Shown here: piece by piece, positions 3,281 through 44,574 of the stretch
How positions within the stretch are numbered: position 1 is the stretch's first letter
Layout: each line of letters opens with the position of its first letter
Origin: Candidatus Avispirillum sp.
GTDB lineage: Bacteria; Bacillota; Clostridia; Oscillospirales; CAG-272
Assembly: GCA_045636685.1 (NCBI GenBank)
Contig: JAZTXZ010000065.1
Location: forward strand, 1-56,138
Direction of reading: 5' to 3'
Length of the DNA: 56,138 nt
Notes under the pieces: generated by a model
Databases searched by the model: none
What the model saw: the letters and a program-made list of their open reading frames with translations, nothing else
What the model was told of the DNA's origin: nothing
Translations under genes and position numbers: made by a program

Positions 3281-3281
3281 T

Positions 3282-3671
3282 TTATTTATCTTCGGAGAGA
3301 TTCATCTCCGCCTCGTCAAGTATCTTTCTCAGCTCATCAACATCGTCCTTTGTAAGAGCTTTCTGACCTGCAAGTGAGGAAACCATAAGACCGAGGCTTC
3401 CGTTATATACTCTTGAAAGGAAAGACTCTGTTTCCCAAATAGCGCAGTCTTCTTCGGAAACGGTAGCAGAGTATTTCTGAGGCTTAACTGTCTGGTCAAG
3501 AGAAGCCGCTCCTTTAGCAATAAGACGTCTGAGCATAACGAAAACTGTGGATTTAGACCAAGCTGTGTCGTCCTTGAGTGCGTTTGTAATGCCGATAAGG
3601 TCACTTGCTTTATCTGCCCAAAGCACTTTCATAACTTTCCATTCGCAGTCTGACAAATAAATTTTTTCCAT
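3282..3671 (-). CDS. BlaI/MecI/CopY-family winged-helix transcriptional repressor
   Basis: 129 aa. N-terminus LSDCEWKVMKVLW...WSKSTVFVMLRRLIAKG is the family's wHTH. It is immediately upstream of, and coupled to, an M56 sensor gene. Confidence 0.85.
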   Translation of the reverse strand: MEKIYLSDCEWKVMKVLWADKASDLIGITNALKDDTAWSKSTVFVMLRRLIAKGAASLDQTVKPQKYSATVSEEDCAIWETESFLSRVYNGSLGLMVSSLAGQKALTKDDVDELRKILDEAEMNLSEDK

Positions 3672-13209: not shown

Positions 13210-13220
13210 TCTTCATTGCA

Positions 13221-13340
13221 GTGAAATCCACGCACAGCGTGGGTGAAATCCGCTTCGGGGATCAAATACGCCTTCGGCGCGTGAAATATTTCCTTTGGAA
13301 ATGTGAATGAAGGTTTTCTCCGCTTTTGCGGAGAAAACCA
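13221..13340 (+). repeat. array of five short stem-loops, each preceded by a GTGAAAT-like heptamer
   Basis: Heptamers at 13221, 13243, 13261 (ATCAAAT), 13281 and 13303 (GTGAATG). Each is followed by a different hairpin; two have C(UUCG)G loops and the last has a 12-bp stem. Confidence 0.5.
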
Positions 13341-20264: not shown

Positions 20265-20362
20265 ATGTAAGTCTTAAAACACTGTTAAGATATTGTTTCA
20301 GAAAAAAGTTCTGATAGAAACTTTTTTTGTTTTATAAATTAAAAAACGGGAGATATCCGAAA

Positions 20363-28334: not shown

Positions 28335-28461
28335 CTCTCATAAAAATAATTTTAAGAATTATAACATAAATTTACAGTAAATTCAACTGTATCTAAACTA
28401 AAAGATGTAGAAAATATATTTTCCTTATGCTATAATCATAAAAAAGAGAGGTGAAAAAGGT

Positions 28462-29019
28462 ATGCGTAAGGATTTCGGAAAAAAGACATGGTTGTATCCT
28501 ATGCCTGTATTTATTGTGGCTGCATACGATAAGGACGGTGTTCCTTGTTGTATGAATGCGGCCTGGGGAGGCATATATGATACAAATATGATAATGGTTT
28601 GTCTTGCGGATGACCATAAGACAACAAAGAATATAACAGAAAGCGGAGCTTTTACCGTAAGTATTGCAGACGCCGATCATGTGACAGAAGCAGACTATGT
28701 GGGCATTGTATCCGGAAACAGCGTTCCCGATAAGATGGACAGAGCAGGTCTTACAACTGTTAGATCTCAGTATGTAAATGCACCTGTTATAAATGAGTTT
28801 CCCATGACGGTTGAATGTAAGCTTATAAAATTCAATGAAGACGGAATCTGTATAGGAGAGATAGTAAACGTTTCGGCAGATGAAAAGGTTCTTGGAGATG
28901 ACGGGCTTATCGATCCGGAAAAGCTTGGTGCTGTCACATACGATCCTGTAAGACATACATATATAAAGCTTGGAGAAAAGGTAGGATGCGCGTTCTCCGA
29001 TGGAAAGAAGCTGAAATAA
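28462..29019 (+). CDS. flavin reductase-like (FMN-binding split-barrel) protein
   Basis: 185 aa. N-terminus WLYPMPVFIVAAYDKDG.P..MNAAWGG is typical of the flavin reductase-like domain. Confidence 0.75.
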   Translation: MRKDFGKKTWLYPMPVFIVAAYDKDGVPCCMNAAWGGIYDTNMIMVCLADDHKTTKNITESGAFTVSIADADHVTEADYVGIVSGNSVPDKMDRAGLTTVRSQYVNAPVINEFPMTVECKLIKFNEDGICIGEIVNVSADEKVLGDDGLIDPEKLGAVTYDPVRHTYIKLGEKVGCAFSDGKKLK

Positions 29020-29058
29020 AGAATTATTCATATCCTGCATGAAAATGATGATATTCTT

Positions 29059-29101
29059 AAAAACCCAAGGGGCTGTTTTTATAACAGCCCCTTGGGTTTT
29101 T
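29059..29101 (+). terminator. intrinsic terminator
   Basis: About 18-bp stem AAAACCCAAGGGGCTGTT/AACAGCCCCTTGGGTTTT followed by T. Confidence 0.8.
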
Positions 29102-29243
29102 AATGGGCAGTAATTTTTATCTTTTGGCTTATGCATTAATAACATATTTTTCTTTCATTTCCAGCTATTTGTTTTTATGCTGAGATAAAAAAGGAATATA
29201 TTTATGTTACTTGCGGAAAATGAATCTGTAAGGATGTGATAAT

Positions 29244-30566: not shown

Positions 30567-30665
30567 ATACTTTTGAATCTGTCCGCAAAAACGGACATCA
30601 GAAAATACTTGCTTTAAAGAAAAAGTACACGAAAGAAAATTTATTTTTTCGGTACTGTAAAAGAA

Positions 30666-30702
30666 AAAGGAATCTCCGTCAGAGACGGAGATTCCTTTTT
30701 TT
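30666..30702 (+). terminator. intrinsic terminator
   Basis: Stem GGAATCTCCGT/ACGGAGATTCC followed by T7. Confidence 0.8.
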
Positions 30703-30807
30703 GATAACAGTAAAACACAGTCTGTTCAAGTGATGTATTATGTACAAGATTTGTGGGGAATTTTGGTATTTCATTGGCGAAATGTTTGGAAATAATGTCA
30801 TAATTTG

Positions 30808-30836
30808 TTGACTAATATTTGAAAATATGTTAATAT
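30808..30836 (+). promoter_or_regulatory. sigma-A type promoter candidate for the four-gene operon
   Basis: TTGACT-17 nt-TAATAT, about 35 nt upstream of the ATG at 30871. Confidence 0.5.
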
Positions 30837-30870
30837 ACACTATATATATTTATTTTTAGGAGTGTGTGCG

Positions 30871-33054
30871 ATGAAGCGGTCTTTAAAAGTACTTTGCGTT
30901 TTACTTGCCACAGTTATATGTGTTTTGCCTCTGATTCCTTTTGTGAACGGAGCTTCTGTATTTCAGCGTCAAAAAAAGAGTATATATCTTGTTCTTGACG
31001 ATTCTTTCAGTATGGTAAATCGCCCGACATACGATGCAAATTATTCATTGCAAACTCTTCTTGCGATGACAGATAAAAACGATTCTGTCAAGCTTTATTT
31101 CTTGAATGAAAAATTTGGCTTGTCCGGAAATATCGAGATGTCCAAAAAGGACAATGATATGCTCTCAAAGGTACATGATAAATATCCTGAGCCTACAGGC
31201 GGTACTCCTTATACGAGTGTTCAAATTGCTCAAAAGGAATTGACAGCTGCAGCATCCGAGGGAGATGAGACCGATTATTGGCTTGTCGTATTTACAGACG
31301 GAGAGTTTTCAATGCCTGCAGGATTGACAACTGAAAATGATCTTCAGACTTTCGCAGATAAAGAGCTTGCAAATGGAACTAAACCCAATGTTTTGTATAT
31401 TACTGTCGGTGGTACAAGTATTAGTAACGGTAATCGTGATAATCTCCACGTTATAGACCACACCAGTATTATCACTGCCATGACTGATGCGGCAAAGGTA
31501 ATATCCGGCCGAATCAATGTTGAAAATGTTAATTATTCCGCAGACGGTAAAGAGCTTACTTTCTCGTTGCCTTATCCTGCTAAGAATATCATCGTATTAA
31601 CTCAGAATACCCGTACAAAGATTACAGATTCAAAGGCAGCATCCGATCTCAATATATCGGAAAACTATACTATCACCTATCCGGAACCCGGCTATGGACT
31701 GGATAAATCTACTGTATGCTTCATAACAGAGAAGAATAACTCCAGCATCGGCTCCGGAGAAGTTACTCTCAAATTTGATAAAGGATTAAATCCTCAAAAT
31801 ACTACTGTACTATTTGAACCTGCCATAGGAATAGTAGCACATTACTATAACAGTGACGGTGCCGAGGTTGATCCCAAGGATCTGTACATCAGTGAGAATT
31901 GCAGAATTGAATTTACGATCTGTGACAGTGAGACCAAGAAGCCGCTTGATATCGGAGCTTTCGGAGGCAATGTAAAGTATTCTTCCGAAGTGGATGGAAT
32001 TAAGGCAGATTCAAATGTCCGTGAATTCACCATCAATAAAGACGAAATTGAAATAGTTCTTTATGCCGAGATGCCCGATGGCTATATTCTGGAAACAAGA
32101 CAAAAATATAATTTTGAAGTAAGCAGAATCATAACATTCACGCTTTCAAACGGAGGTAAGTTTAAAGCTGATATTACCGAGTTGAAAAATGCGGAGGGCA
32201 CACGCGCCGATATCCTTATAAACGGAGCGAGTATTTCATCCGCGGAGTTGAAGGATTTTGAACTCGATATTGAAGGAGAAAACAGTTTCGTTTCAAATTT
32301 CGATATTGAGAAGGATGAGAAAAATGGTGGTTTCATAATCCATCCCAAAAAGGGCTGGATATCGCCCCTTACACCTAAAGATAAAACTTATAAAGTAAAC
32401 CTTACCGATAAATCAACCGGTAAAATCTATACCGCTGACCTTACAGTAGAAATTACTGGCCCGAGAAATTGGATCCCGATTATTGTTTTTGTTCTCATAG
32501 TTGCTCTTATTGTATATCTCATAATAGTATTTGCAACAAAGACATATTTCCCGAAAAATTTGAGATTTGTGCTGTATTTGAATAAGCCTGATTCGGGAGC
32601 CAAAGGTAAGCATGGAATTAAATATACACTAGGAAAGATTTATTGGAATGAATTTACGAAGTGCTTTAAAGGTAATTTTACCTTTTTTGTACATCTGTTC
32701 AAACAGCTGCTCCCCAATACAAGGCAATGTGTAACTTTGTACGGTATAGGCAGCAGGGGGTATTATGACCAAATTACGATCATAGCTAATCTTTCAACTG
32801 TTGTATATGCCGAAGATAAAACTTTGAAGTATAATGAAACCAGTAAAAAATTCAGTTCGGAATATGATGTGTATAACAGCAATTTCATTAAGATCATGGG
32901 CGCTGAAAATCTGACAAAAAAACCGAAATCAAAGGAAAAGCCTCGTTATACAATAGATACAGGAAATGTACTGGTCAGAAAGAAAGTTTCATCTACAAAT
33001 AGTAAAGTATATCTTCACATTACCAGAAAAACAAAAAAGAAATTAAATAAATAA
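30871..33054 (+). CDS. membrane protein with extracytoplasmic von Willebrand factor A (vWA) domain
   Basis: ATG 30871 follows a TAGGAG RBS. Signal/anchor MKRSLKVLCVLLATVICVLPLIPFVNG. MIDAS elements LVLDDSFSM (DxSxS), GGTPYT and VVFTDGEF. Beta-rich middle region, TM WIPIIVFVLIVALIVYLIIVFA, and a basic ~170-aa tail. Confidence 0.75.
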   Translation: MKRSLKVLCVLLATVICVLPLIPFVNGASVFQRQKKSIYLVLDDSFSMVNRPTYDANYSLQTLLAMTDKNDSVKLYFLNEKFGLSGNIEMSKKDNDMLSKVHDKYPEPTGGTPYTSVQIAQKELTAAASEGDETDYWLVVFTDGEFSMPAGLTTENDLQTFADKELANGTKPNVLYITVGGTSISNGNRDNLHVIDHTSIITAMTDAAKVISGRINVENVNYSADGKELTFSLPYPAKNIIVLTQNTRTKITDSKAASDLNISENYTITYPEPGYGLDKSTVCFITEKNNSSIGSGEVTLKFDKGLNPQNTTVLFEPAIGIVAHYYNSDGAEVDPKDLYISENCRIEFTICDSETKKPLDIGAFGGNVKYSSEVDGIKADSNVREFTINKDEIEIVLYAEMPDGYILETRQKYNFEVSRIITFTLSNGGKFKADITELKNAEGTRADILINGASISSAELKDFELDIEGENSFVSNFDIEKDEKNGGFIIHPKKGWISPLTPKDKTYKVNLTDKSTGKIYTADLTVEITGPRNWIPIIVFVLIVALIVYLIIVFATKTYFPKNLRFVLYLNKPDSGAKGKHGIKYTLGKIYWNEFTKCFKGNFTFFVHLFKQLLPNTRQCVTLYGIGSRGYYDQITIIANLSTVVYAEDKTLKYNETSKKFSSEYDVYNSNFIKIMGAENLTKKPKSKEKPRYTIDTGNVLVRKKVSSTNSKVYLHITRKTKKKLNK

Positions 33055-33081
33055 GTTTGTGATTAAAAGGAGTAAAAAAAA

Positions 33082-36000
33082 ATGAGTGCACCTCAAATTG
33101 TTGAAATCAGTAATACCCGTCCAAGACAGGTTCTTCTTGTAGGATTGGGAGGCGTTGGCAGCAGAACAGTAGATACGATTCTGTCCGTAATGCCTGATGA
33201 ATATAAGCCCTACACAACTGCTGTTGCAATTGATACCGATGTTGGCGACCTTGATAAGAGACTGACATATATCCCCAGAGAAAACAGAATATCCTTGGGC
33301 ACAAATCCCAAGAACGGTCAGTCCATAACAGTTGGTAATTATATAAGAAATCATCCGGAAACGGAAGAGTGGTTCCTTAAGGGAGAGCGCGTTGACCTGG
33401 TAAAAAAGAGAAATACCAAGGAGGGCGCAAAGCAGGTAAGAATGGTTTCCCGTATCGCTCTTGCTGCCACCGATGAATACTGCGGTATGACAAAGAAGCT
33501 TGAGGATGTGCTTCAAGGACTGAATAAGGCAGACGGAACTACGATCAGCAGCGGACTCCTTGTTCTGGTAGTTGCCTCCGTTGCAGGAGGTACCGGTGCA
33601 GGTACTGTGCTTCAGTTCCCCCTTTATCTTGAGCAGGCGCTTTCAAGATCATTCCAGGATGACAGCATTCAGATAGAATGTGCTATGCTTCTTCCCAATA
33701 TGTTCAGCCATGTTCATACTTCTCAGAATGCTGCGTCTGCCCGTGCAAATGCATATGCTGTTGTACGTGAACTTATTTCCATGAACAGCAGAAGACTTAA
33801 GAGAGGAGATATTCTTCCCGGCTGTGACTTTGGTAAAAAATCAGAGAATATTTCTCCTTATTCCAGAGTGTATTTCTTTGATGATTGCAGCATTTCCGGC
33901 GATACCATAATGACTGACCTTGATCGCGTATATGTTCCCAAAACAGCCAATGCCCTTAATGAATATCTCTTCGGTGCGGCAAAAGGTAAAATTACAAGCG
34001 ATCTTGATAATACTTTGCAGGCAGTATATGAATCTGAAGGTGCAGCTATATTCTCCGCTTTGGGTTCTGCAGTGCTTGATTATCCCAGGGCTACATATAC
34101 TCAGTATGTGATTGGCAAGTGGATAACAAAGGTTATAGCAAGGGATTGGAGATATGTTGACGAAAAAGTAAATAATCGCTATGCCGAGATCATAAAGAAT
34201 GCTATTGAAAACGGAACAGGAAAGCCTAATAAAGAAAAAACAAAAAGAGCTCTCTACCTTGATATAGTAGGCCGCGAGGATACTCCTTTCTTTAAGGAGA
34301 TCAAAAGATCTTATTTTGTATCTGAAGGTGCGGATGATGAATATGATGAGGATGCTGAAAAGTTAAGCCTTGCACAGTTGTTCTGGAATCGTTGTGAAAA
34401 TCATCTCAGAGACGAGGTGAACAGAAATACAAGATTTACAACTGCAAAGATTGAGCTTGAAAATAATCTCGTTGAAAACGATGTAGGCACATTTATTGAC
34501 AATTTGAAAGAAATTGAGCAGTCAGGCGCTGCACTTCAGTCTGTGGGCTCGCAGTATGAGATGGATGTAGTACGTCCTATGGAAGCTCAGAATGATGTTT
34601 TCTATACATCCCGTAATCGTGTTGAGAAGCATCTTTTCACCTTCCTCAAAAAACATAAGCTTCATCCCATAATGCTCAGATATTTCCTTTGCGAACTTCA
34701 AAAGCTTGCTATGGAAAATTCCGTATTCAATACAGAAGAGTTAAACACTCAGGATTTCAAGGAGCTTAAAACTAAAAGAGATCGCAGAGAACATGCAATA
34801 AATCAATCTGCCAAATTAGATGAAAAAACTGTAAGAAACGTCATTGCAAATTTCGCACAGTATCTTGTTGCTGACCTTGATGAGTATATCAAGGAGTTAG
34901 AGGATATGTTCATGTGCCTTGATTCTGTAATCGGTACATTTGAGACAACTTCCAGAAAGTCTCTTGAGAATCTTACCTTTAGTAATCCTCAGACAGGCGC
35001 TGTGCTTTCAGGCGGTTCTCTTTCCATGAGATATGTATGGAAGCGTATCGAAGATGAGATGAGTAACGGTGCTGATGTGTTCACTGTTGATGAAGAACTG
35101 AACAACAAGCTTCATGAACTAATATATAAAGCATTTTATGGCAGAGTGGGCGACATTCAGTCGTCAAATGGCAACAGTGATGAAGGATTCAGAGTAAGAA
35201 CCAAATATGAGACTATTCTTGCAAGAGAACTTCAGATATATTACTCAAGAATGCTCAATGACAGATATTCCAATATATTCCCCAGTGATGTATTTGATGC
35301 GGCAAGAGTTGAATGCGGTCTCAGAAATGCATATAAGGAGCAGCGCAGTCGTGTTGATGATCCCGGTAAATTCACTGAGCAGGTGTTCATTGATAGGGGC
35401 GGAAGACCTTTGAATTTCGCAACTGAAATTGAGGCACCTGCAGGAATGCAGGATGATGCAAGATATTTGACAGCATTGCTTAATGCAACTATAGCAAATT
35501 CTAAACCCTACAGCGGACGTCTTAAGGATTATATCGATGTAAGCACAGATCAGTACGGAAATACAGACGGTATAAGAACAGACGTTATTGTTAATTCAAG
35601 ATTGCTTCGTACAGAGGCTGATCCTCATAACCTTGATGAATTCGGCGTTGCCAAAGAACGCAGAATCGAGGAGGAGTTTATAGACGGCGTAAGTGCAACC
35701 AGCGTTATGGGTACCGATATACAGACTACTTATGTGGACAGCGGTATCTCTCTTAATCAGATCAAGATTGTAACTTCAATCAGATCATTACAGCCCTTCA
35801 ACTTCGTTGCATTCCTTCCTTCTGACGATGATAAGCATTCTCCCACCAATGGTAAGACTTATTTTGAGTCATACAGAGAGGCAGTTAACGATATTCCGGT
35901 AAAGAATAATGTGATAACACCTCATCTCCATCGCAATTGGCATCTTGCTGATATGCTGGATGATATTACCGATGCACATACCAATACATATAACAGAAGT

Positions 36001-36771
36001 GCAGCTGAAGCTTTTGTGCTTGGATTTATTTTTGATATTATCAGAGTCGGAAGTGACTGTGTTGTTGAAATAGGAAAGCTCCATAATCCTTATTTCTCAA
36101 GAATTTTCGGAGATATGGGTATTAAGCAGTTTGTTCTCCTTGATAAAGTTGCACATGCTTCCGTTGATAACAGCATAAAGCTTGAAGGATGTGAGGTAGG
36201 TGCAAAGCGAGATACAGTAAATGCAGTTCTTGTGGAGATTTATAGTCTTCTTGCATCAACTGATAATCTTAGGGATGCGATCTTCGGTTATGCAACCGAG
36301 CAGTTTAAAGAATATTCTATTAAAAAAGATGTTCAGTTTATCAGAAACTGTATCGAAGATGAGAATATTTCCAACGTTATGTACAACTGTATTCTTGACG
36401 TAATTGACGGCTATTATCAGGGAACCCGTCAGCTTCCTTACAAAGAAGCGTTCCGTGGCGAAACCAATACAGATTATATGGTTAAGGCAGTATTTAAAAA
36501 TCTCTATGAGATGTGCAACCTGTTCAGCAACGAAATTTCTGCTGTTAAGACTATTTACGAAAAGTTTGTAGATAAGCTTTATGATGATTGCTTCTGTGAG
36601 GGGGTAGCAGAGAATATGATCGTTGAATCGCTCGATGAATATGATGAATTAGCAGCAATAGCTAATTCGGTTAACAAGAATAGCGGAACACAGAGTAAGC
36701 CTTTTTCTCCCAACGGTACTTTCAGTCGCAAGAATGCAAAAGATATTTTTAATCAGCTTATAAACGAATAA
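33082..36771 (+). CDS. giant tubulin/FtsZ-superfamily GTPase-like protein (1229 aa)
   Basis: AAGGAG RBS. N-terminus LLVGLGGVGSRTV, AIDTD, EGAKQVRMVSRIAL and VASVAGGTGAGTV, which matches the tubulin/FtsZ signature GGGTG[ST]G. About 900 aa of extension with no TM. Confidence 0.7.
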   Translation: MSAPQIVEISNTRPRQVLLVGLGGVGSRTVDTILSVMPDEYKPYTTAVAIDTDVGDLDKRLTYIPRENRISLGTNPKNGQSITVGNYIRNHPETEEWFLKGERVDLVKKRNTKEGAKQVRMVSRIALAATDEYCGMTKKLEDVLQGLNKADGTTISSGLLVLVVASVAGGTGAGTVLQFPLYLEQALSRSFQDDSIQIECAMLLPNMFSHVHTSQNAASARANAYAVVRELISMNSRRLKRGDILPGCDFGKKSENISPYSRVYFFDDCSISGDTIMTDLDRVYVPKTANALNEYLFGAAKGKITSDLDNTLQAVYESEGAAIFSALGSAVLDYPRATYTQYVIGKWITKVIARDWRYVDEKVNNRYAEIIKNAIENGTGKPNKEKTKRALYLDIVGREDTPFFKEIKRSYFVSEGADDEYDEDAEKLSLAQLFWNRCENHLRDEVNRNTRFTTAKIELENNLVENDVGTFIDNLKEIEQSGAALQSVGSQYEMDVVRPMEAQNDVFYTSRNRVEKHLFTFLKKHKLHPIMLRYFLCELQKLAMENSVFNTEELNTQDFKELKTKRDRREHAINQSAKLDEKTVRNVIANFAQYLVADLDEYIKELEDMFMCLDSVIGTFETTSRKSLENLTFSNPQTGAVLSGGSLSMRYVWKRIEDEMSNGADVFTVDEELNNKLHELIYKAFYGRVGDIQSSNGNSDEGFRVRTKYETILARELQIYYSRMLNDRYSNIFPSDVFDAARVECGLRNAYKEQRSRVDDPGKFTEQVFIDRGGRPLNFATEIEAPAGMQDDARYLTALLNATIANSKPYSGRLKDYIDVSTDQYGNTDGIRTDVIVNSRLLRTEADPHNLDEFGVAKERRIEEEFIDGVSATSVMGTDIQTTYVDSGISLNQIKIVTSIRSLQPFNFVAFLPSDDDKHSPTNGKTYFESYREAVNDIPVKNNVITPHLHRNWHLADMLDDITDAHTNTYNRSAAEAFVLGFIFDIIRVGSDCVVEIGKLHNPYFSRIFGDMGIKQFVLLDKVAHASVDNSIKLEGCEVGAKRDTVNAVLVEIYSLLASTDNLRDAIFGYATEQFKEYSIKKDVQFIRNCIEDENISNVMYNCILDVIDGYYQGTRQLPYKEAFRGETNTDYMVKAVFKNLYEMCNLFSNEISAVKTIYEKFVDKLYDDCFCEGVAENMIVESLDEYDELAAIANSVNKNSGTQSKPFSPNGTFSRKNAKDIFNQLINE

Positions 36772-36789
36772 ATTTAAGGATACCAACTT

Positions 36790-38514
36790 ATGGAAGAACT
36801 CAAAACAGTTGTTATTGTAGACCGCAGAATCTACGAGAAAATCCAACTGTATAGAAGTTTTCTTGAGAGAAGTGAGTTCGAAACTCAATTGTCCGAAACC
36901 CGATTCATATGTGAAGATACAGCTGAGGACTTGTCCTCAGCTGTATCAAATAATATTACGAATTATTTATTTCTGTACGGGTTGATAGACGGTGATGAGT
37001 ATAGGATTCATCGTGATTTGATTATCGATAAGATGAAGAACTATCCCAACTCAAACTTCTATATGATTTTCTGCCAGAATCTGCTTAACGATGAGCCCTA
37101 TGACAATATTGAAAAAGTTAAAGGCTTAGTCTGCAAACCTTTTTGTATAGGAATAGTTGAGGGGGGCGATTTGTCCGATGAAGAAGCTGCTGAAAATCTT
37201 CGTTGTGTGAAGCTTTTGTCTCTTGCTATGGCGATATGTTCGTATAATGATGGCCCCGGAGGGTGCTATGCTCCCGAATACTATTATGTAACAGCTACAA
37301 TAGATGTTAATTGTACGAATGTGTTTTACGCTGCATCCTATGAATTAAGTAAGTTTGCTGAGTCAATTAATAATAAAGTTCAGCAAATCAATGGGCTTGA
37401 AGCCAGCGCTGATAGCATTGCAAAGGAAAAGCCCCACATGTGTACGGGAAACTATGCAGATGCCTCTCAGGCGCTTGAGTCATTGTCGCTACGTGGCTTT
37501 TCCGAATATTCGGATATGAGTGCTATGCGTCGCGAGATGGAGTTCTTGGGTAAGAAATGCGTTACTGTATATGATGATAACATTGCTTCGAAAATAAACA
37601 CAGCACGTTGCGGGCTTGCATTTGCTGAAGAAAAAATCAAACCGACATACGATGTAAATAATAACGGCAATATTTCTGTAGATGTTGATTATAATCTTGC
37701 CAATAGCTATATGTCTATAACGGAAGCCGATGAGGATCAGGTTGCTTCTCCGGATGAACTGCTTGCTCGTCCCGATAATAATATGGGATTTAATGTTGCG
37801 ATGCTGCGTTCAGCTTTGCCTCTTGCAAAGGAATTAGAGAAGTCTCAGTCAACTCAGCCGAAAAAAATATTGCCAATTACCTTGGGTATACTCCTGCTTT
37901 TTGCAGTGTCAGCTGCATCGGCATATATAGTAAGATATTTTATGTCAGGACTGACAGGAGTTGATATGACTGATATCTTGCTTACAATTTGTATTCCTGT
38001 TGCTGTTATACTTTTGATTACTGTAATTGCTTTTTGTATAAGCATATTTCAGAAGAGACAGAAAAAGCAAATATTTAAAGGGCTCTATTCAAAGATTTCA
38101 GCCTTTATAGAAAATACCAAAGATGTTTGTTTGAAAATAAATCAATATATAGATAAATATCTTACCGTTTATTTTAATTATCACATCAAGTATAATCTGA
38201 TCCGAGAGTGTAACGAAAAGGCAGAATATTTGAAAAAGGATATTCTTGCTATTCGCAAAAAGAGCATTCCTTATGAGGATCTTGTAACTACAATGTGCCT
38301 TTTAAATAAAGCGGACATTCCTTATCCTCAAAATAAGGTAGATGAAAACGGAAGTATTGTAAGAACTGTATCTGAAGAGATCATACACAAAATCAAAGAA
38401 AGCTCATCTGATGATAATACCGGTGCAGATGAGCCTCAGAGGCTCTTATCTCCATGGATGACATCCGTGGTAATTGAAACCGGTAGCTTTATTCCAAAAG
38501 AAGAGGAGAGCTGA
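36790..38514 (+). CDS. two-TM membrane protein, function unknown (574 aa)
   Basis: Soluble N-domain of about 355 aa, then a TM hairpin (ILPITLGILLLFAVSAASAYIV and ILLTICIPVAVILLITVIAFCISIF), then a helical acidic C-terminus. The stop is 1 nt from the next ATG. Confidence 0.6.
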   Translation: MEELKTVVIVDRRIYEKIQLYRSFLERSEFETQLSETRFICEDTAEDLSSAVSNNITNYLFLYGLIDGDEYRIHRDLIIDKMKNYPNSNFYMIFCQNLLNDEPYDNIEKVKGLVCKPFCIGIVEGGDLSDEEAAENLRCVKLLSLAMAICSYNDGPGGCYAPEYYYVTATIDVNCTNVFYAASYELSKFAESINNKVQQINGLEASADSIAKEKPHMCTGNYADASQALESLSLRGFSEYSDMSAMRREMEFLGKKCVTVYDDNIASKINTARCGLAFAEEKIKPTYDVNNNGNISVDVDYNLANSYMSITEADEDQVASPDELLARPDNNMGFNVAMLRSALPLAKELEKSQSTQPKKILPITLGILLLFAVSAASAYIVRYFMSGLTGVDMTDILLTICIPVAVILLITVIAFCISIFQKRQKKQIFKGLYSKISAFIENTKDVCLKINQYIDKYLTVYFNYHIKYNLIRECNEKAEYLKKDILAIRKKSIPYEDLVTTMCLLNKADIPYPQNKVDENGSIVRTVSEEIIHKIKESSSDDNTGADEPQRLLSPWMTSVVIETGSFIPKEEES

Positions 38515-38515
38515 T

Positions 38516-41500
38516 ATGAAACCTATTATATTGTTAATATTGGTATGTATAATTGAATTTCTGTTAGCTCCGAAAAAAGAGTATAGATACCGAAATATCG
38601 ATTCTTTGATTGCAGCATTTTTTGTATGGATGGTTGAGATTATTTCTGATATTTTGATATCAATAATCTATCCTGATCTTCAAAATGTTGAGTTATTCTT
38701 CTATCTTGTAATTGCAATACAGGCAATAATCATTATAGGAACTAAACTGATCTCCAAAAGCAATGATTCCTTGGTTAAATACGGAATTCCTCCTAAATAC
38801 ACTGAAGGATTTCGATCTTCTTTTATAGGTGGATTCTACGATTTTGATAAAAGTACTCCCATAGTTTATTCCAAAGGTTTTGTCAATCCTTTGGGAATAT
38901 CGGTTTTGTGCAGTACTGTCATTCTTGCATGTGTCTTCGTATGGCAATCCTATACTTATGATTTGTCAGGAAATACATTGCTTCTTCCTTATTCTTATGC
39001 AGGATTGCTTTCCATTTTGGTTGAGTTTGCGGTATTTTGTCTCGGTGAATCAAAATGGGAGAATCTTCTTAAAAGATACAGAAGCCGTAAGAATTGCACC
39101 AATAAAAGAGAATATGCTAAATCAAGATATTCAGCAGTTGAAAAGTATGGCTATATATTTCTGAAAAACTTTATATATGAGCCTATGAGTATCAACAGGG
39201 CTACTAAGTTCAACTGGAAATCGGATGCATTTAAAAGTTCAATAGTATACTATAATTTTAGTGATCATTCAGAAAGTGAATATACAAGCCAGGAGCATAA
39301 TGCTGCACTTGAATCATTCATTTCGCTTAATAATCTCAGGGTTAACGAGTACTATGTTGCTGCTTACAATCTTATAGACCGAGATCAGAATGTTTTGATC
39401 AAGACACCTTCATATGTTGAGTTTGAGCCTTATCTTGTTTCAATGATAAAGCTCAAAGTTGCAAAAACACAAAAGGTTGTAATGATAGTGAGCAATGATG
39501 AGAAAAAGCAGGCCATTGTTCAGAAGATCAAAGGGGCATTTAACGAGTATTTTGGTTTTGACAGTATTCCTCTTATCACTGAGATCGGTGAATATGCGGA
39601 TATAGAAGAGAGGAAAGCAAAACAAAAAAAGGCTCCTGAGCCACGCAGTGCTCGATCACATCTTGATGCAATTATTCAGAGTAATATCATCAAAGAAGAA
39701 GAGCCGGTCATACCCATAAAGTCTCCGGATGTTGTTATAGCAACATCAGAGGATGTATGTGATCCTGAATATATAGAGCATATAAAAACAATCGTTAAGA
39801 ATCTTGGCTTGATAGTATATTACGATTTTGGCGATTCTGTCCAGGAAGAAACACTTTTTGCCAAAATAGTTCATGCTGTTCTTGATTATGACGATAAAGT
39901 GCCTACACTCTATATGTCTGACGGATTTTTCGATCTGGAGCAGGTCGTAGATAACTTTTTTTCAAAGAGAAATCTGTATAGGATCGTTGTTCCGAGAAAA
40001 CCTTCGAAAGAAAGCTATATAACCGGTTGGAAATCGGAAACTTTAGCTGAGATTCAATCCAGGACAGAACCGGATGCATCAAGAAATATCGGCAATCATA
40101 TCCCTGTTCTGTACGATTGTACAGGTCATACACAAAATGACATGATGATCGTAGAGGACGAATATGACACTTATGCTGAGAATATGTCCAATTTTTCCGG
40201 TTCTAATATTGCACATCGCTTTGACCATCATGTTGGATGGACAGATGTTATTGGTGGAAACAGTGTGATTTGTTCTGTTTCGGACACATATAACAATGCA
40301 GCTCATACATACTTAGCTATGCAGGGTGTAGGCGAAGCAAGTGAATATATCAATATAATTTCAAGACCATATCTGCTCAGAAACTATTTGATGTATCATT
40401 TGAGATATTTTGCTTTAAACCCCGGAGTGTTGTCATCATATTCACCAGGAATGATCAAAACTTCTCGTGCAATATCTTATGAGGCCGTCATCAAGGCTTT
40501 CATAACCGGATGTACTGAAGAACAGATAGAATTGTACATCCAGCAGACATCTCTCCCTGCCATCGGAACACCTGAGGAAAGACTTGAGTCACTTGTTAAG
40601 TGTGCTTTAGGCGGGAAGGCTTCTGTAGCTCCAATAATTACAAAGGATAGTAAAGAACGTTATTATATCGATAAGGATACCTATTCCTGCATTATAGAAA
40701 AGAGCGGGTTGATAGAAAAAATCGAGTTTGTTAATAATAATCAAACTTTTCTTCGTAACAGACGGGATTACAGCTATTTGATACCTCATCAGAAAATTGT
40801 TATCAACGGTATTAAATATACAGTAGAGGCTATCAAAGGAAATCGTGTTGAGATCACTGACTCAAATATTCGAGAGCCTATGTACATTACAAGACCTGTG
40901 CGTACTTGTAATATAAGAGTACAAGAGGAAGAGAACTATGGAAACATAATACAGAACAGCAGTGATACCTCTATTAGCTTCAAAAGATTTGTATGTGATG
41001 TTTCTCTGGACGTATATGGCACTATCATATTTAAAAACAGCTATCATCCGTTCTTTGATGATGAAAGATTTGATTATCAAAAATCATCCGTAAAACAACA
41101 CAGAGAATACGATGATGTTAATGTTTTCTGTATAAAGATAGGAAGCCCCTATATCAACAGCTCAAACCGAACCGAGATAGAGCATTTGTTTGCATTGCTT
41201 ATCAATGAAATGCTCCCAACATTTTTCCCGAAGCATTCTGAGAAAATAATTATCGGATGCAACGGTTGGGTGATAGATCCTGAAATCGGAAACATCATGC
41301 CCAAAACAAAGCATATGATTGCACAAATGAATATAGACGGCATGGAAATGCTGGCTGAAAATGAGATGTGCATCTATGTTCTTGAGGATTCTCCTCTTGA
41401 GACGGGTTTGGTCAACGTATTTTGGCAGGATGAAGAGTTCCGATATATGTTAAAGGTACTTGAAGATTACCTGTATTATCAGGAAACAATACGCAGACAG

Positions 41501-42610
41501 GAGCAGAAGGAATTATTCAGCAAAAATTATAAAGAACATCTGCATCTGCTGAGAAAGATACTTTTGAAGGCAGCAAATGAAACTGTTGAATTCCGCTCAT
41601 CAAGAGATGATTTTGATGTGATGAATTTTAACAGTATCAGAGCTTCGCGTAACAAGTACAATAATATTGATATCAGCAGGAACTTTAATCTTACCTGTGA
41701 TATATGTGGTAAACCCATAATCCGAACATCTTCTCAGAAGGTTGACTATCATTTTTACTCGTATTCTGGCATGGTCAGCTGTATGAACTGCTTCAGTCAG
41801 GCTGTATGCGCGGAAAAGTATTCCCAGGCTGATATAAATGTTCTTGAGGAAACGATCAACAGATGGTTTATGTCCAAATACAACGAGTCTGTCGAAGGAG
41901 GATTTTATAATTATCTGGAGGATGCAGAATTTCTCAATGATCTGGTGGTTGAGCATAACGGTGATCAGAACAGATATATCGTGACTGACGATGCCGATAT
42001 GGACGGTGTATACGGATTGAGCCTTAGTAAGCCTTCTGTTAAGAGCTCAGTCATTTCTTCTCCCAATGCTGAAGGCATTCCTGTAACTATGGGTGACAGT
42101 GGAGTTGAGGTCTATGATAGGGTCCGTTCAGGTTATTATGTTGACGATAACGGTATTCCATTTATTTTTATCCGTGACGGACTTCCGTATAAGAAATATA
42201 TGGGTGTGCTGTGTCACGAGATGACTCACCAGTGGCAGTACGCAAACCTGGATTTTGAGAAGCTTGCAATAGGCGTTCCCAGCGGAAGATCCGATGAATT
42301 CGGCAAGAACATTGATCTTACTTCTATGCGTATTGAAGGCCATGCAGAATGGGAACGAATGCGTTATCTTAGTGCACACGGAACTAATACAGCTCCTTTG
42401 AAAAGGAAGTTGGCAGCTACACAGAATAGTTACGGCATCGGATATGTATGGATGAAAAACATGATGAAGGTCGGACATGATGATTATAGGATTCCTGCTA
42501 ACAGAACTTTCAAATTCATAATGAAGAGGAATTTCTATCAGTTTACAAAGAATTCCTTTGCTTTGATGAAGCTTTACTTCGGAATTAAACCGCCTGACGA
42601 AGAGAATTAA
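38516..42610 (+). CDS. giant polytopic protein with Cys4 zinc ribbon and C-terminal HExxH zincin-like domain (1364 aa)
   Basis: ATG 38516 follows GAGGAGAG and lies 1 nt after the upstream stop. About 5-6 N-terminal TM helices. CDICGKP...CMNCFSQAVC. VLCHEMTHQWQY...EGHAEWE near the C-terminus. Confidence 0.65.
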   Translation: MKPIILLILVCIIEFLLAPKKEYRYRNIDSLIAAFFVWMVEIISDILISIIYPDLQNVELFFYLVIAIQAIIIIGTKLISKSNDSLVKYGIPPKYTEGFRSSFIGGFYDFDKSTPIVYSKGFVNPLGISVLCSTVILACVFVWQSYTYDLSGNTLLLPYSYAGLLSILVEFAVFCLGESKWENLLKRYRSRKNCTNKREYAKSRYSAVEKYGYIFLKNFIYEPMSINRATKFNWKSDAFKSSIVYYNFSDHSESEYTSQEHNAALESFISLNNLRVNEYYVAAYNLIDRDQNVLIKTPSYVEFEPYLVSMIKLKVAKTQKVVMIVSNDEKKQAIVQKIKGAFNEYFGFDSIPLITEIGEYADIEERKAKQKKAPEPRSARSHLDAIIQSNIIKEEEPVIPIKSPDVVIATSEDVCDPEYIEHIKTIVKNLGLIVYYDFGDSVQEETLFAKIVHAVLDYDDKVPTLYMSDGFFDLEQVVDNFFSKRNLYRIVVPRKPSKESYITGWKSETLAEIQSRTEPDASRNIGNHIPVLYDCTGHTQNDMMIVEDEYDTYAENMSNFSGSNIAHRFDHHVGWTDVIGGNSVICSVSDTYNNAAHTYLAMQGVGEASEYINIISRPYLLRNYLMYHLRYFALNPGVLSSYSPGMIKTSRAISYEAVIKAFITGCTEEQIELYIQQTSLPAIGTPEERLESLVKCALGGKASVAPIITKDSKERYYIDKDTYSCIIEKSGLIEKIEFVNNNQTFLRNRRDYSYLIPHQKIVINGIKYTVEAIKGNRVEITDSNIREPMYITRPVRTCNIRVQEEENYGNIIQNSSDTSISFKRFVCDVSLDVYGTIIFKNSYHPFFDDERFDYQKSSVKQHREYDDVNVFCIKIGSPYINSSNRTEIEHLFALLINEMLPTFFPKHSEKIIIGCNGWVIDPEIGNIMPKTKHMIAQMNIDGMEMLAENEMCIYVLEDSPLETGLVNVFWQDEEFRYMLKVLEDYLYYQETIRRQEQKELFSKNYKEHLHLLRKILLKAANETVEFRSSRDDFDVMNFNSIRASRNKYNNIDISRNFNLTCDICGKPIIRTSSQKVDYHFYSYSGMVSCMNCFSQAVCAEKYSQADINVLEETINRWFMSKYNESVEGGFYNYLEDAEFLNDLVVEHNGDQNRYIVTDDADMDGVYGLSLSKPSVKSSVISSPNAEGIPVTMGDSGVEVYDRVRSGYYVDDNGIPFIFIRDGLPYKKYMGVLCHEMTHQWQYANLDFEKLAIGVPSGRSDEFGKNIDLTSMRIEGHAEWERMRYLSAHGTNTAPLKRKLAATQNSYGIGYVWMKNMMKVGHDDYRIPANRTFKFIMKRNFYQFTKNSFALMKLYFGIKPPDEEN

Positions 42611-42662
42611 GGCAAATCGGAAGAAGGCAACATATAAGCAAAATTAAAAATAAGGCGAATAA

Positions 42663-42700
42663 AAAACCTCTGGAGCCGTTTGGCTTCAGAGGTTTTTTTA
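42663..42700. terminator. bidirectional intrinsic terminator between convergent genes
   Basis: Stem CCTCTGGAGCC/GGCTTCAGAGG (one G-U pair), flanked by A6 and T7. Confidence 0.8.
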
Positions 42701-42719: not shown

Positions 42720-44273
42720 TTAGTCATCGAGCTTACGCTCCATCTCAGCCTTCTGAACCTCGGGATCGAAGTTGTACATAGGCTCGATATCCTCGCCCTT
42801 CTTGACTCTTCTGAGGTAGTTGTTTGTGATCTTAACAACAAGGGGAGAAAGAGCAAGAACACCGATAAGGTTGGGGATCATCATAAGTCCGTTGAATGTA
42901 TCGGAGATATCCCATGCAAGAGAGGATGTGAGGACAGCGCCGAAGATAACAGTACAAACGTGGATGATACGGAATACGAATGTTGTCTTTGCGCCGAAGA
43001 GATATTCCCAGGCCTTGGAGCCGTAGTGAGACCAGCCGAGAACAGTAGTGAATGCGAAGAGGAACATAGCAATGGCGATGAACTTTTCACCGATATTGCC
43101 CCAGGAGAATACAGAGTTGAACGCGCCGCCGACGAGAGTTGCATCTGTGTAACCCTCTGAGATCTCACCTGTGATAACGTTGAATACGCCGCCGTCAAGA
43201 CCGCCTGCTGTGAGGATAACGAGAGCTGTCATTGTGCAGACTACCATAGTATCTGCAAATACCTCGAAGATACCCCACATACCCTGCTTTACAGGCTCCT
43301 TAATGCTGGAATTGGAGTGAACCATAACGGAGGAACCGAGACCTGCTTCATTTGAGAATACTCCTCGTTTGAAGCCCTGTGTGATTACCTTACCAACGAT
43401 AGCACCGATACCTCCGCCAACGAATGCTTCAGGCTTGAATGCGTTAACGAAGATAGCCTTGAATGCAGGGAGAATGTTTGCATAGTTTATACCGATGATA
43501 ACAAGGCTTCCTGCAACGAAGAGAATTACCATGAAGGGAACAATCTTTTCTGCAACGTTTGCGATTCTCTTAAGACCGCCGAGAGTGATAAGAGCTGTGA
43601 GAAGCATAATAAGTGCGCCGAGGATGATATTGTAAAGGGAAACACCGGAGAATACCTCGACAGAGGAAAGGGCGGAAACGTCAAATGCCTGAGCAACGTT
43701 TGTAACTATTTTATTTACCTGACCCATGCTTCCGATACCGAAGGATGCAAGCATAGTGAAGATACAGAAGAGGATTGCGAGGGTCTTGCCGACGTATTTC
43801 ATACCCTTCTTTTTACCGAGACCGTCTGTAAGGTAGTGCATTGCACCGCCGGACCACTCGCCGGCTTCATTCTTTCTGCGGTAGTAGATACCGAGAACGT
43901 TCTCTGCGTAGTTTGTCATCATACCGAAGAATGCGGCGATCCACATCCAGAAAACGGCACCTGCGCCGCCGATGCAGATAGCAGCGGCAACACCTGCGAT
44001 GTTACCTGTACCTACAGTTGCAGCGAGGGCAGTACAAAGAGCCTGGAAGGGAGAGATTGATCCCTTTTCCTTTGTGTGCTTGATAACGTCCTTTTTGAAA
44101 AGGCTTCCGAGTGTGTTCTTGAACCAAAGACCGATGTGGGAGATCTGGAAGAATTTTGTGAGCACGGTAACGATAATACCTGTGCCGATGAGAAGAAGCA
44201 GACCGAAAGCGCCCCAAACAATGCTGTTGATCTCGCCGTTAACGCTTTCGATGGCCTTTAAGATTTTGTCCAT
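42720..44273 (-). CDS. alanine/glycine:cation symporter (AGCS family)
   Basis: About 517 aa and polytopic. The pattern ISPFQALCTALAATVGTGNIAGVA is the AGCS signature region. ATG 44273 has GGAGG upstream. The upstream in-frame extension overlaps the riboswitch terminator. Confidence 0.9.
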   Translation of the reverse strand: MDKILKAIESVNGEINSIVWGAFGLLLLIGTGIIVTVLTKFFQISHIGLWFKNTLGSLFKKDVIKHTKEKGSISPFQALCTALAATVGTGNIAGVAAAICIGGAGAVFWMWIAAFFGMMTNYAENVLGIYYRRKNEAGEWSGGAMHYLTDGLGKKKGMKYVGKTLAILFCIFTMLASFGIGSMGQVNKIVTNVAQAFDVSALSSVEVFSGVSLYNIILGALIMLLTALITLGGLKRIANVAEKIVPFMVILFVAGSLVIIGINYANILPAFKAIFVNAFKPEAFVGGGIGAIVGKVITQGFKRGVFSNEAGLGSSVMVHSNSSIKEPVKQGMWGIFEVFADTMVVCTMTALVILTAGGLDGGVFNVITGEISEGYTDATLVGGAFNSVFSWGNIGEKFIAIAMFLFAFTTVLGWSHYGSKAWEYLFGAKTTFVFRIIHVCTVIFGAVLTSSLAWDISDTFNGLMMIPNLIGVLALSPLVVKITNNYLRRVKKGEDIEPMYNFDPEVQKAEMERKLDD

Positions 44274-44309
44274 TGAAAATGAACCTCCTGTGAGAAAAAT
44301 AGTCAACCG

Positions 44310-44350
44310 AACAAAACAAAAATCACCGCTGTCCAAATGGATAGCGGTGA
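44310..44350 (-). terminator. riboswitch expression-platform terminator
   Basis: On the minus strand: TCACCGCTATCC-ATTT-GGACAGCGGTGA followed by TTTTTGTTTTG. Confidence 0.7.
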
Positions 44351-44417
44351 GAAAGAGAAAGCGATATAACAAGTAACGATATAACAGGGATATGGGAATT
44401 CCGTGCTAATAGTTGAT

Positions 44418-44574
44418 CTGTCCTTTTGCCTGAGAGATTGTGGTATTAACCTTTGCCCCTTCGGCATCCGCGCATGGCGAACTTCTCCAGATTGCTATCC
44501 GTCAGCAGTCTTCGTCTTGCGACACCCGAGAGTATTACCCCTTTGGAAAGGCTTTCGCCTTATCTCCTGCTGAT
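44418..44574 (-). promoter_or_regulatory. tandem glycine riboswitch (two aptamers)
   Basis: On the minus strand, aptamer 1 is CAGCAGGAGA...AAAGGGGTAA...CTCGGGTGTCGCAAGAC..CTGCTG. Aptamer 2 is CTGGAGAAG...GCCGAAGGGGCAA...CTCTCAGGCAAAAGGACAG. These are the conserved glycine-aptamer cores, upstream of an AGCS transporter gene. Confidence 0.85.

Follow-up and report, generated by a model that had tools for sequence, protein, structure and literature searches.

A four-gene membrane operon encoding a divergent FtsZl1-family tubulin/FtsZ relative in gut Clostridia

Introduction

The FtsZl1 ('FtsZ-like 1') family was defined computationally by Makarova and Koonin (2010, Biol Direct 5:33; PMC2875224) as proteins of ~1050 amino acids (aa) in which a highly divergent FtsZ-like GTPase domain at the N-terminus is followed by a long coiled-coil or helical stretch and then by a C-terminal domain rich in alpha-helices; their operon partner usually carries a von Willebrand factor A (vWA) domain. 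T6-H7 and the canonical C-terminal domain were not identifiable by sequence in these proteins (PMC2875224), and the correspondence between FtsZl1 and the Pfam Tubulin_2 model has been stated since (PMC9871819). Tubulin and vWA components are also found in the GAP1-N2 GTPase-centric conflict systems (Kaur, Burroughs, Iyer & Aravind 2020, eLife 9:e52696; PMC7159879), and gene sets described as 'Tubulin + other protein + vWA' and 'Tubulin system' (UAS-129, UAS-130) were reported to be associated with clustered regularly interspaced short palindromic repeats (CRISPR) (Altae-Tran et al. 2023, Science; PMC10910872). Here we analyze a four-gene operon located at 30871-42610 on the + strand of a 56,138-nucleotide (nt) stretch of DNA from Candidatus Avispirillum sp. 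(contig JAZTXZ010000065.1; the whole stretch is called the window below). Its second gene encodes a protein of the FtsZl1 family, and its other three genes all encode membrane proteins according to hydropathy. We compare the operon with related cassettes in other genomes and propose a tentative role for it.

Results

The gene 2 product is a member of the FtsZl1 family

Gene 2 starts at ATG 33082 on the + strand, stops at 36771, encodes 1229 aa and is preceded by an AAGGAG ribosome-binding site 10 nt 5' of its start, exactly the reading frame given in an initial annotation made from the letters of the window. The Pfam model PF13809 (Tubulin_2, 'Tubulin like') matched its product at E=1.2e-35, scoring 123.9 bits where the cut-off is 27, and the match covered aa 18-352, corresponding to profile positions 1-355 of 356. 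The classical model PF00091 gave a weak match below its own cut-off (E=1.3e-3, aa 161-228), and no FtsZ_C or Tubulin_C domain was found in the Pfam scan. The tubulin/FtsZ signature that the initial annotation had recognized by eye, and for which it had proposed a Pfam search, is therefore beyond chance. Besides two distant homologues, 27 other full-length homologues of the gene 2 product were collected (30-75% identity, ~1185-1260 aa), all of which have precomputed PF13809 matches. These results directly support the placement of the gene 2 product in the FtsZl1 (PF13809) branch, which is probably the most divergent one within the tubulin/FtsZ superfamily. The protein is a very divergent tubulin/FtsZ relative and not a new kind of protein; its large size, its helical extension and its vWA neighbor are hallmarks of FtsZl1 that have already been described. 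The novelty implied for this protein by the initial annotation did not hold in this respect, the family having been known as FtsZl1 since 2010 (PMC2875224).

The tubulin/FtsZ-like GTPase domain was assigned to aa ~15-335 (33124-34086, +) on the basis of Pfam, AlphaFold2 (AF2) secondary structure, Foldseek, hhalign against E. coli FtsZ, and invariance among homologues. In order along the chain, LLVGLGGVGSRTV occupies aa 18-30 and contains T1, GLGGVG (G21-L-G-G-V-G26); AIDTD lies at aa 49-53 and provides the NTD-like D51-T52-D53; EGAKQVRMVSRIAL lies at aa 114-127, where the T3-like element G115-A-K-Q-x-R120 is found; and VASVAGGTGAGTVLQFP occupies aa 164-180 (nt 33571-33621) with T4, A168-G-G-T-G-A-G-T175. 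All four motifs had been quoted in this order by the initial annotation, and its statement that T4 fits [SAG]GGTG[SAT]G was also correct, the matching residues being AGGTGAG at aa 168-174. They are followed by T5 (P205/F208), by H5 (N223/Y225/E230) and, further on, by F266-D267. Among 28 full-length homologues, the invariant residues are G21, G23, G24 and G26 of T1, D51-T52, G115-A-K-Q118 and R120, G169-G-T-G-A-G-T175 of T4, P205, F208, N216, N223, Y225, E230, F266-D267 and L308-D-N-T-L312, and the GTP-loop motifs are likewise invariant in 93 broader or distant members of the family. From motif conservation and the structural model, there is direct support for a GTP-binding domain of the tubulin type in the first ~335 aa, in which the T1, T3 and T4 loops are intact. 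Since all nucleotide loops are intact, GTP binding by the gene 2 product is very likely, as judged from the sequence.

The fold was examined in an AF2 model of aa 1-1200 built on the homologue alignment (mean predicted local distance difference test (pLDDT) score 77.7, predicted template modeling (pTM) score 0.59). Foldseek against the PDB returned 100 matches at E<=1e-3, of which the top 50 were all CetZ, FtsZ, TubZ or tubulin, with no other Rossmann-like fold among them, in agreement with the superfamily that the initial annotation had proposed to check by structure prediction. The best matches were CetZ1 (4b46, E=2.9e-6) and S. aureus FtsZ (4dxd, E=4.9e-5), and TubZ (2xkb) was also among the best structural matches; the alignments extended over ~320-385 columns with TM-scores of 0.31-0.50 normalized to the target. 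In a viral structure library, the best matches of the same model were phage FtsZ, phage tubulin and PhuZ. A profile of the close family, aligned with E. coli FtsZ by hhalign, gave a probability of 10.7%, and confident columns were restricted to T1, S2 and T4. With the 93-member profile, E was 4e-5 and the probability 70%, and T1, S2 with the NTD-like DTD, the T3 GAG, T4 and the T5 P-x-x-F were in register, the alignment being unreliable past H5. A resemblance of these motifs to tubulin that arose by chance on another Rossmann-type fold would be in line with the PDB search by sequence profile of the full-length family, which found only CetZ 4b46 at E=0.089, so that sequence alone cannot place the protein among solved structures, and with the sub-threshold PF00091 match. 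The PF13809 score, the uniform top 50 Foldseek matches and the in-register loops in hhalign contradict such a chance resemblance, and we regard it as effectively refuted.

A candidate T7 element follows the conserved core

The segment S306-D-L-D309-N310-T-L312 (33997-34017, +) is a candidate equivalent of T7 and H8, proposed from its conservation and from a pattern that parallels FtsZ. N310 is present in all 93 family members and D309 in 75% of them, and the site reads S-x-L-D-N-T-L in the close family and S-x-E-D-N in distant members. The AF2 model predicts a helix at 280-297, a short loop, a helix at 301-317 that contains the motif, a loop with G320, and a strand at 324-333, which reads C-G-A-G-x-A-x-L-x-Y-P in distant members. 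This order parallels that of FtsZ, in which H7 is followed by T7 (N-V-D-F-A-D), H8, a glycine and S7 (M-G-x-G-x-A-x-G). We infer from the pattern and the predicted secondary structure, with no hhalign support for the register, that S306-N310 could be the T7 equivalent; alternatively, D309/N310 may be the counterparts of the N/D that contacts guanine where H7 begins. The initial annotation had been unable to recognize T7 by eye, as had Makarova and Koonin, and its caution was justified, as the alignment is reliable only through H5 and the model has no canonical beta-sheet domain at the C-terminal side. Beyond strand 324-333, helices alone are modeled up to a beta-rich domain at 831-903, and neither the four-stranded activation domain nor the canonical S8-S10 sheet is predicted.

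These features bear on the possibility that the gene 2 product is a GTP-binding switch that forms no tubulin-like protofilaments, in which the N-domain would bind GTP and perhaps hydrolyze it as a monomer or dimer and the extension would serve for oligomerization or as a scaffold. The helices that occupy the place of S8-S10 of FtsZ in the model and the unreliable alignment with FtsZ beyond H5 are consistent with such a switch, and Makarova and Koonin, who found no T6-H7, allowed for a family that does not form filaments (PMC2875224). Against this, the family-wide S-x-(E)-D-N and the helix, glycine and strand that come after it are arranged like T7-H8-S7 of FtsZ, and the Foldseek alignments take in ~330-380 columns of FtsZ, TubZ and tubulin cores of 300-430 residues. 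We consider a switch of this kind unlikely, but with a chance large enough to be kept in view.

The C-terminal extension is typical of the family

The ~890 aa that follow the GTPase domain are mostly helical in the AF2 model, with helices at 565-611 and 613-629 among them and the small beta-rich domain (831-903). A Kyte-Doolittle scan revealed no convincing transmembrane (TM) segment in the gene 2 product, windows above threshold being confined to 152-160, a predicted beta-strand, and a single one at 977; the ~900-aa extension free of TM segments noted in the initial annotation was thus confirmed. A profile of aa 353-1229 was searched against 1.84 billion representative proteins and matched 244 of them at E<=1e-3, 93 at 1e-10 and 11 at 1e-30. 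Outside the close subfamily, the matching proteins of full length measure ~1050-1390 aa and are aligned from about their residue 340, and the other matches listed are shorter sequences. Eight of these proteins were scanned, and Tubulin_2 was detected at the N-terminus of each (E=1e-49 to 1e-65).

Two blocks of the extension, aa 353-595 and 872-975, are common to 85-98% of 111 distant proteins, and aa ~600-870 and ~980-1229 are specific to the subfamily. The first block (34138-34866, +) lies immediately after the GTPase domain, is modeled as helices, includes W356 and D360, and is present in ~85% of distant FtsZl1 proteins. The second block (35695-36006, +) is marked by the conserved signature G-x-Y-[YF]-x-x-Y ... 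[VI]-[TS]-P-H-L-[DH]-[KR]-x-W-H, which ends in x-x-W-H in a looser form and which reads KTYFESY ... ITPHLHRNWH at aa 925-954 of the gene 2 product (nt 35854-35943). Y931, H948 and W953 are present in all of 100 distant family members, and P947 and H954 in 92% and 90% of them, respectively; AF2 places this signature at low confidence. Judged from these profile matches, the ~900-aa extension is typical of the family.

The partner genes encode three membrane proteins

The four genes of the operon are separated by gaps of 27, 18 and 1 nt. The preceding gene is ended by a hairpin and T-run within 30567-30861, ahead of the operon, and a promoter-like site, TTGACT and TAATAT separated by a 17-nt spacer and accompanied by TG, is located at 30808-30836 (+) as a match to consensus only. 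A strong hairpin resembling an intrinsic terminator, with a 17-bp stem and a T-run, closes the operon at 42661-42698 (+). As the initial annotation had noted, gene 2 stands between genes for membrane proteins, and according to hydropathy its product is the sole soluble protein of the four. Because no Walker A/P-loop motif was found in any of the four proteins by motif search, the FtsZl1 protein is the only recognizable NTPase of the operon. No Pkinase or OmpA match was found in the operon proteins with Pfam.

Gene 1 (30862-33054, +) is a 730-aa open reading frame (ORF) from GTG 30862 and encodes a membrane-anchored vWA protein, for which ATG 30871, 8 nt after AGGAG, is the likelier start. Hydropathy and alignment give the product a signal peptide, an extracytoplasmic vWA domain, a beta-rich region, one TM segment (~531-560) and a basic cytoplasmic tail of ~165 aa. 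Its metal ion-dependent adhesion site (MIDAS) is intact, D46-x-S48-x-S50, G113-G-T115 and T145-D146-G being invariant among the aligned orthologues. The protein of the window itself had no Pfam match, and two orthologues matched Pfam at the position of the vWA domain (VWA_2, E=9.1e-7; VWA, E=1.6e-4).

Gene 3 (36790-38514, +) encodes a 574-aa protein of no recognizable family, with orthologues at the same position in the compared cassettes. Hydropathy suggests a cytoplasmic N-domain of ~355 aa, a hairpin of two TM segments (~358-420) and a cytoplasmic C-domain of ~150 aa, both ends being predicted to be cytoplasmic. No similarity was found by Pfam at E<=0.5, by PDB profile search or by profile-profile comparison with the tubulin family, and the idea that gene 3 encodes a degenerate second tubulin was rejected, as the comparison with Tubulin_2 gave no signal.

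Gene 4 (38516-42610, +) encodes a 1364-aa protein from ATG 38516 after GAGGAG, the mechanically delimited ORF starting at TTG 38474. Hydropathy indicates five N-terminal TM helices within aa ~1-180, and they are followed on the cytoplasmic side by a putative, degenerate helicase-like core with the motif-like blocks VAKTQK (~316), PDVVIATSEDV (~404), LIVYYDFGD (~432) and LYMSDG (~465). A zinc ribbon (C1061-x2-C ... C1089-x2-C), all four of whose cysteines are invariant in 16 homologues, precedes an HExxH motif (H1234, E1235, H1238) that is invariant in the same 16 together with E1274. Sub-threshold Pfam matches to metallopeptidases were obtained among the gene 4 members for DUF6782 (12/16), BSP (8/16) and DA1-like (4/16). 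The C-terminus is a candidate zincin-like domain. Foldseek with a low-confidence model of the cytoplasmic part returned superfamily 2 (SF2) helicases, at the top MrfA (6znp_A, a DUF1998 helicase; E=3.8e-18 over 883 columns), followed by Mtr4, Hel308, RecQ, Lhr and DEAD-box proteins. If this fold call is right, the helicase-like domain is probably catalytically inactive. A family-profile search with gene 4 found only two distant relatives, both unannotated.

In two cases (P0037, P0038) a transglutaminase-core, cysteine-protease-like domain is fused to a gene 4 homologue, and standalone transglutaminase-like genes are found beside two other cassettes (L006, 428-1441; L010, 14515-15522). This domain may be an optional fifth component of the cassette.

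The cassette is rare, patchy and found in varied surroundings

The same four genes, in the same order and of similar sizes, were found in all eight genomic settings compared, namely the window and the loci L001, L002/L003, L006, L008, L009, L010 and L011. The proteins encoded by genes 1 to 4 measure 705-749, 1185-1258, 540-589 and 1345-1480 aa across these settings, all of which are metagenome-assembled genomes (MAGs) of Clostridia where the organism is named. Among 185,579 species-representative genomes, a scan limited by the search pattern detected the cassette at a minimum of nine loci, indicating a rare and patchy distribution; all nine are in MAGs labeled Oscillospiraceae, Acutalibacteraceae, Ruminococcus sp. 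or 'Clostridia bacterium'. L012, which at 75% identity is the closest relative, has the cassette in common with the window and not the flanks. In the window, the operon location is chromosomal, and the G+C content of the cassette (0.34-0.40) is below that of most of the remaining window (up to 0.49).

Several settings place the cassette near genes of conflict or transfer. L006 is flanked by a type IV secretion system (T4SS) coupling protein and DarT-NADAR, L009 by an integrase, L010 by a TIR protein, a transglutaminase and FtsK/SpoIIIE, and L011 by FtsK/SpoIIIE. L002 has two CRISPR arrays and RT-Cas1/Cas2/Cas6 (RT, reverse transcriptase) upstream and an LHH toxin with SUKH immunity downstream. 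In the single lineage formed by L002, L003 and L015, the cassette begins ~200 nt after cas6 and adjoins two CRISPR arrays and RT-Cas1/Cas2. The arrays of L002 (456-3016 and 5568-6741) are in opposite orientations with the repeat GTATCAATTCCCC[AG]GAGGGGATTTGGTAG, and the same repeats occur at 243-593 of L015.

This lineage, together with the published association of 'Tubulin + other protein + vWA' sets with CRISPR (PMC10910872), would agree with the cassette being an auxiliary module of CRISPR systems like those sets. Neither CRISPR arrays nor cas genes were found in the window, no CRISPR-like repeats were present in the scanned upstream flanks of the other loci, and no cas genes were among their listed neighbors, which leaves an auxiliary CRISPR role with only a slim chance. 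CRISPR association as a general property of the cassette was rejected, as arrays are found in one lineage only.

The proximity of some copies to T4SS coupling-protein, FtsK/SpoIIIE or integrase genes would also be expected of a TubZ/PhuZ-like motor that segregates or positions the DNA of a mobile element. To the same side belongs a weak tblastn match in the phage collection (MT836542.1, 6973-9786; 25.8% identity over 38% of the query, E=4e-8). However, no TubR-like gene is present, TubZ is only about a third as large as the gene 2 product, and the partners of the latter are membrane proteins without exception; moreover, the gene 2 protein found nothing by tblastn in a collection of 72,556 plasmids, and nothing was found in PHROGs or in the IMG/VR scan. 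A segregation motor is thus highly improbable, and a plasmid or phage origin of the cassette was rejected on the grounds of the missing plasmid, PHROGs and IMG/VR matches and the single weak phage-collection match. Together with the lack of FtsZ_C and Tubulin_C, the same searches bear out the position of the initial annotation that the protein is neither a division FtsZ nor a TubZ. The matched entry, MT836542.1, is an unannotated 9.8-kb 'Bacteriophage sp.' contig from human feces that encodes a distant FtsZl1 relative.

Other features of the window

The gene downstream of the operon encodes a sodium:alanine symporter (42720-44372, -), and a glycine riboswitch aptamer (RF00504, 56.2 bits) is located directly 5' of it at 44408-44500 (-). 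A second structured RNA, Gut-1 (Rfam RF01706, 57 bits, E=1.1e-8), lies at 13219-13292 (+) between genes for an NADH:flavin oxidoreductase and aconitase-X. A 250-aa Cys/His/Ile-rich ORF near the operon (28393-29145, -), which belongs to no family and overlaps a + strand gene, was dismissed as probably spurious; a flavin reductase-like protein is encoded at 28462-29019 (+; PF01613, E=2e-18). At 1364-3671 (-), a BlaR1-type M56 peptidase sensor (PF05569, E=2e-41) adjoins a penicillinase-repressor (BlaI-like) gene, forming an ordinary sensing pair of the beta-lactam type. Finally, a 486-aa protein (20327-21787, +) carries a type I dockerin at its end (E=1.1e-9), pointing to an organism with a cellulosome, and this is consistent with the labels Oscillospiraceae, Acutalibacteraceae and Ruminococcus sp. 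of the genomes with related cassettes.

Discussion

A possible role of the operon

We propose, with about even chances of being right, that GTP drives assembly of the gene 2 product as one element of a membrane-bound machine with sensing and effector parts, for which a role in conflict or defense is the most likely one. According to this proposal, FtsZl1 would bind GTP and assemble into a filament or higher-order oligomer on the cytoplasmic face of the membrane, where the cytoplasmic domains of the three partners would anchor the assembly. Binding of a ligand, possibly metal-dependent, by the external vWA ectodomain would be the input coupled to assembly, and the assembly would recruit or switch on the membrane-tethered zincin/helicase-like gene 4 protein as the effector. 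This effector could act by proteolysis or by capturing nucleic acid or protein at the membrane, and the whole might serve, for example, in surveillance of phage or foreign DNA at the envelope and not in cell division or DNA segregation. A conflict or defense role is favored because the cassette is rare and mobile and often lies near immunity, toxin or conjugation genes, because the presumed effector carries a peptidase motif, and because systems with tubulin and vWA components have been published as conflict systems (PMC7159879) and as CRISPR-associated sets (PMC10910872). The case for defense is nevertheless weak.

The following observations weigh against this proposal. No experimental study of any FtsZl1 protein was found in the literature searched since the 2010 prediction. 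Filament formation and polymerization-coupled hydrolysis are hypothetical, since the C-terminal activation domain is not predicted and T7 is a candidate only. The AF2 model of the cytoplasmic part of the gene 4 protein is of low confidence (pLDDT 61, pTM 0.37), and its motif I reads V-A-K-T and its motif II Y-D/N-F-[GS]-D, Walker A and DExH being absent. No helicase family was found for gene 4 by sequence, whether in Pfam scans of all members, in the PDB profile search or in the family-profile database search, and it is from the fold search alone that the helicase-like assignment comes. PADLOC, NCBIfam and PHROGs returned no match for any of the four operon proteins. CRISPR adjacency is confined to one lineage, and ordinary metabolic or transport genes flank the cassette in the window, in L001 and in L008, three settings out of eight.

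Flanks of that kind and the lack of matches in defense libraries would fit a housekeeping-type machine for remodeling of membranes, vesicles or the envelope, in which a polymer of FtsZl1 would act with the three partner proteins to shape or organize the membrane and would have no role in conflict. All three partners are indeed membrane proteins, and Makarova and Koonin inferred this role from similar contexts of FtsZl1 with vWA genes (PMC2875224). On the other hand, a close cassette in only 9 of 185,579 species genomes, with other flanks in the closest relative, is unlike a core function. An HExxH peptidase motif and a helicase-like domain on the largest subunit would be unexpected in a remodeling machine, and several copies lie beside toxin, CRISPR, TIR or conjugation genes. 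We therefore hold a remodeling function to be unlikely, if by no means negligible.

A bolder form of the defense proposal can also be drawn. In a membrane immune or surveillance machine, the tubulin-type GTPase polymer would set the threshold and transduce the signal; the extracellular vWA/MIDAS sensor would trigger its assembly beneath the membrane, this assembly would activate a membrane-tethered pseudo-helicase/metalloprotease, and the family-wide T-P-H-L-D/H-x-x-W-H signature would replace the activation domain, for instance as an in-trans GTPase activator or a metal site. In this full form the scheme is speculative and we think it rather improbable.

Whatever its role, the cassette is a compact FtsZl1 operon without accessory GTPases or kinases, and the readable features of its partners make it tractable for reconstitution. 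Should it prove to be a defense system, bacteria would here employ a GTPase of the cytoskeletal type as an immune switch; if it is not, it adds one more member to a known and unexplored family.

Comparison with known systems

The closest likeness is to the FtsZl1 family itself. The gene 2 product matches the full PF13809 profile and is built alike, with the GTPase domain at the N-terminus, then a long helical region and a C-terminus rich in alpha-helices, ~1050-1300 aa in all, and T6-H7 is hard to identify in both. The neighbor is a vWA protein with an intact MIDAS, such neighbors often being secreted or membrane-bound, and the other operon genes are lineage-specific TM proteins. In contrast, the P-loop GTPase, Ser/Thr kinase and OmpA-like genes that are frequent, not universal, partners in FtsZl1 operons are absent here. 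The 2-TM and the 5-TM helicase-like/zincin partners of this operon are unmentioned in the FtsZl1 paper, and the N-domain identity of other FtsZl1 proteins to the gene 2 product is only ~23%.

The systems of Kaur and colleagues resemble the operon in their occurrence in Firmicutes, in the placement of a tubulin-domain protein with a long C-terminal helical region beside a TM protein with an extracellular vWA domain, and in their predicted action at the membrane, where a regulated, cytoskeleton-like assembly in conflict was proposed. Their DO-GTPase (with zinc ribbons), GAP1 and fibronectin type III (FNIII)-repeat components are absent here, as no P-loop and no matching Pfam domains are present; the operon has one tubulin and one vWA gene, whereas they have two of each, and it has no YtkA fusion. 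Because the defining GTPase, GAP1 and FNIII components are absent, the four-gene operon is not a member of these systems. By description, UAS-129 and UAS-130 likewise combine a tubulin-domain gene with a vWA gene and TM proteins, and the lineage of L002, L003 and L015 abuts CRISPR; unlike them, neither the window nor the other settings examined showed CRISPR or cas genes beside the cassette.

With FtsZ, CetZ, TubZ, PhuZ and tubulin, the gene 2 product shares the predicted fold of aa ~15-335 and the T1, T3, T4 and T5 loops, at 11-15% identity. It differs from them in the large inserts at aa 72-111 and 236-261, in having no FtsZ_C or Tubulin_C and no predicted S8-S10 sheet, and in its ~890-aa extension. 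Division FtsZ is a protein of ~350-450 aa encoded in the dcw cluster, whereas the gene 2 product has 1229 aa and vWA and TM proteins as neighbors. Unlike TubZ and PhuZ, it has no TubR-like or DNA-binding partner gene and no tubRZC setting. The gene 4 protein resembles MrfA and the DUF1998 SF2 helicases (6znp) in its predicted fold and in a Cys4 zinc element downstream of the helicase-like core. However, Walker A and DExH are replaced (VAKT, YDF[GS]D) and Pfam gives no DEAD, Helicase_C or DUF1998 match; in addition, the protein is anchored by five TM helices and ends in an HExxH zincin-like domain, the confidence of the model being low.

Related cassettes of five genes with two tubulins were found at L004 (6987-23297) and L005 (2-16627), where tandem Tubulin_2 genes encode proteins of 1266-1318 and 924-1084 aa. 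They follow the same order of a vWA-like protein, Tubulin_2, a TM protein and a very large last protein, and their vWA protein (E=1.9e-13) and the helicase-like region of their last gene (E=7e-5) are homologous to those described here. They differ in the second tandem Tubulin_2 gene and in having no HExxH, and they likewise have no Walker A. Set beside all these systems, the present four-gene composition, chiefly the combination of a 5-TM helicase-like/zinc-ribbon/HExxH protein with a 2-TM protein, appears to be undescribed so far, as do the family-wide T-P-H-L-D/H-x-x-W-H signature and the S-x-(E)-D-N candidate T7 motif.

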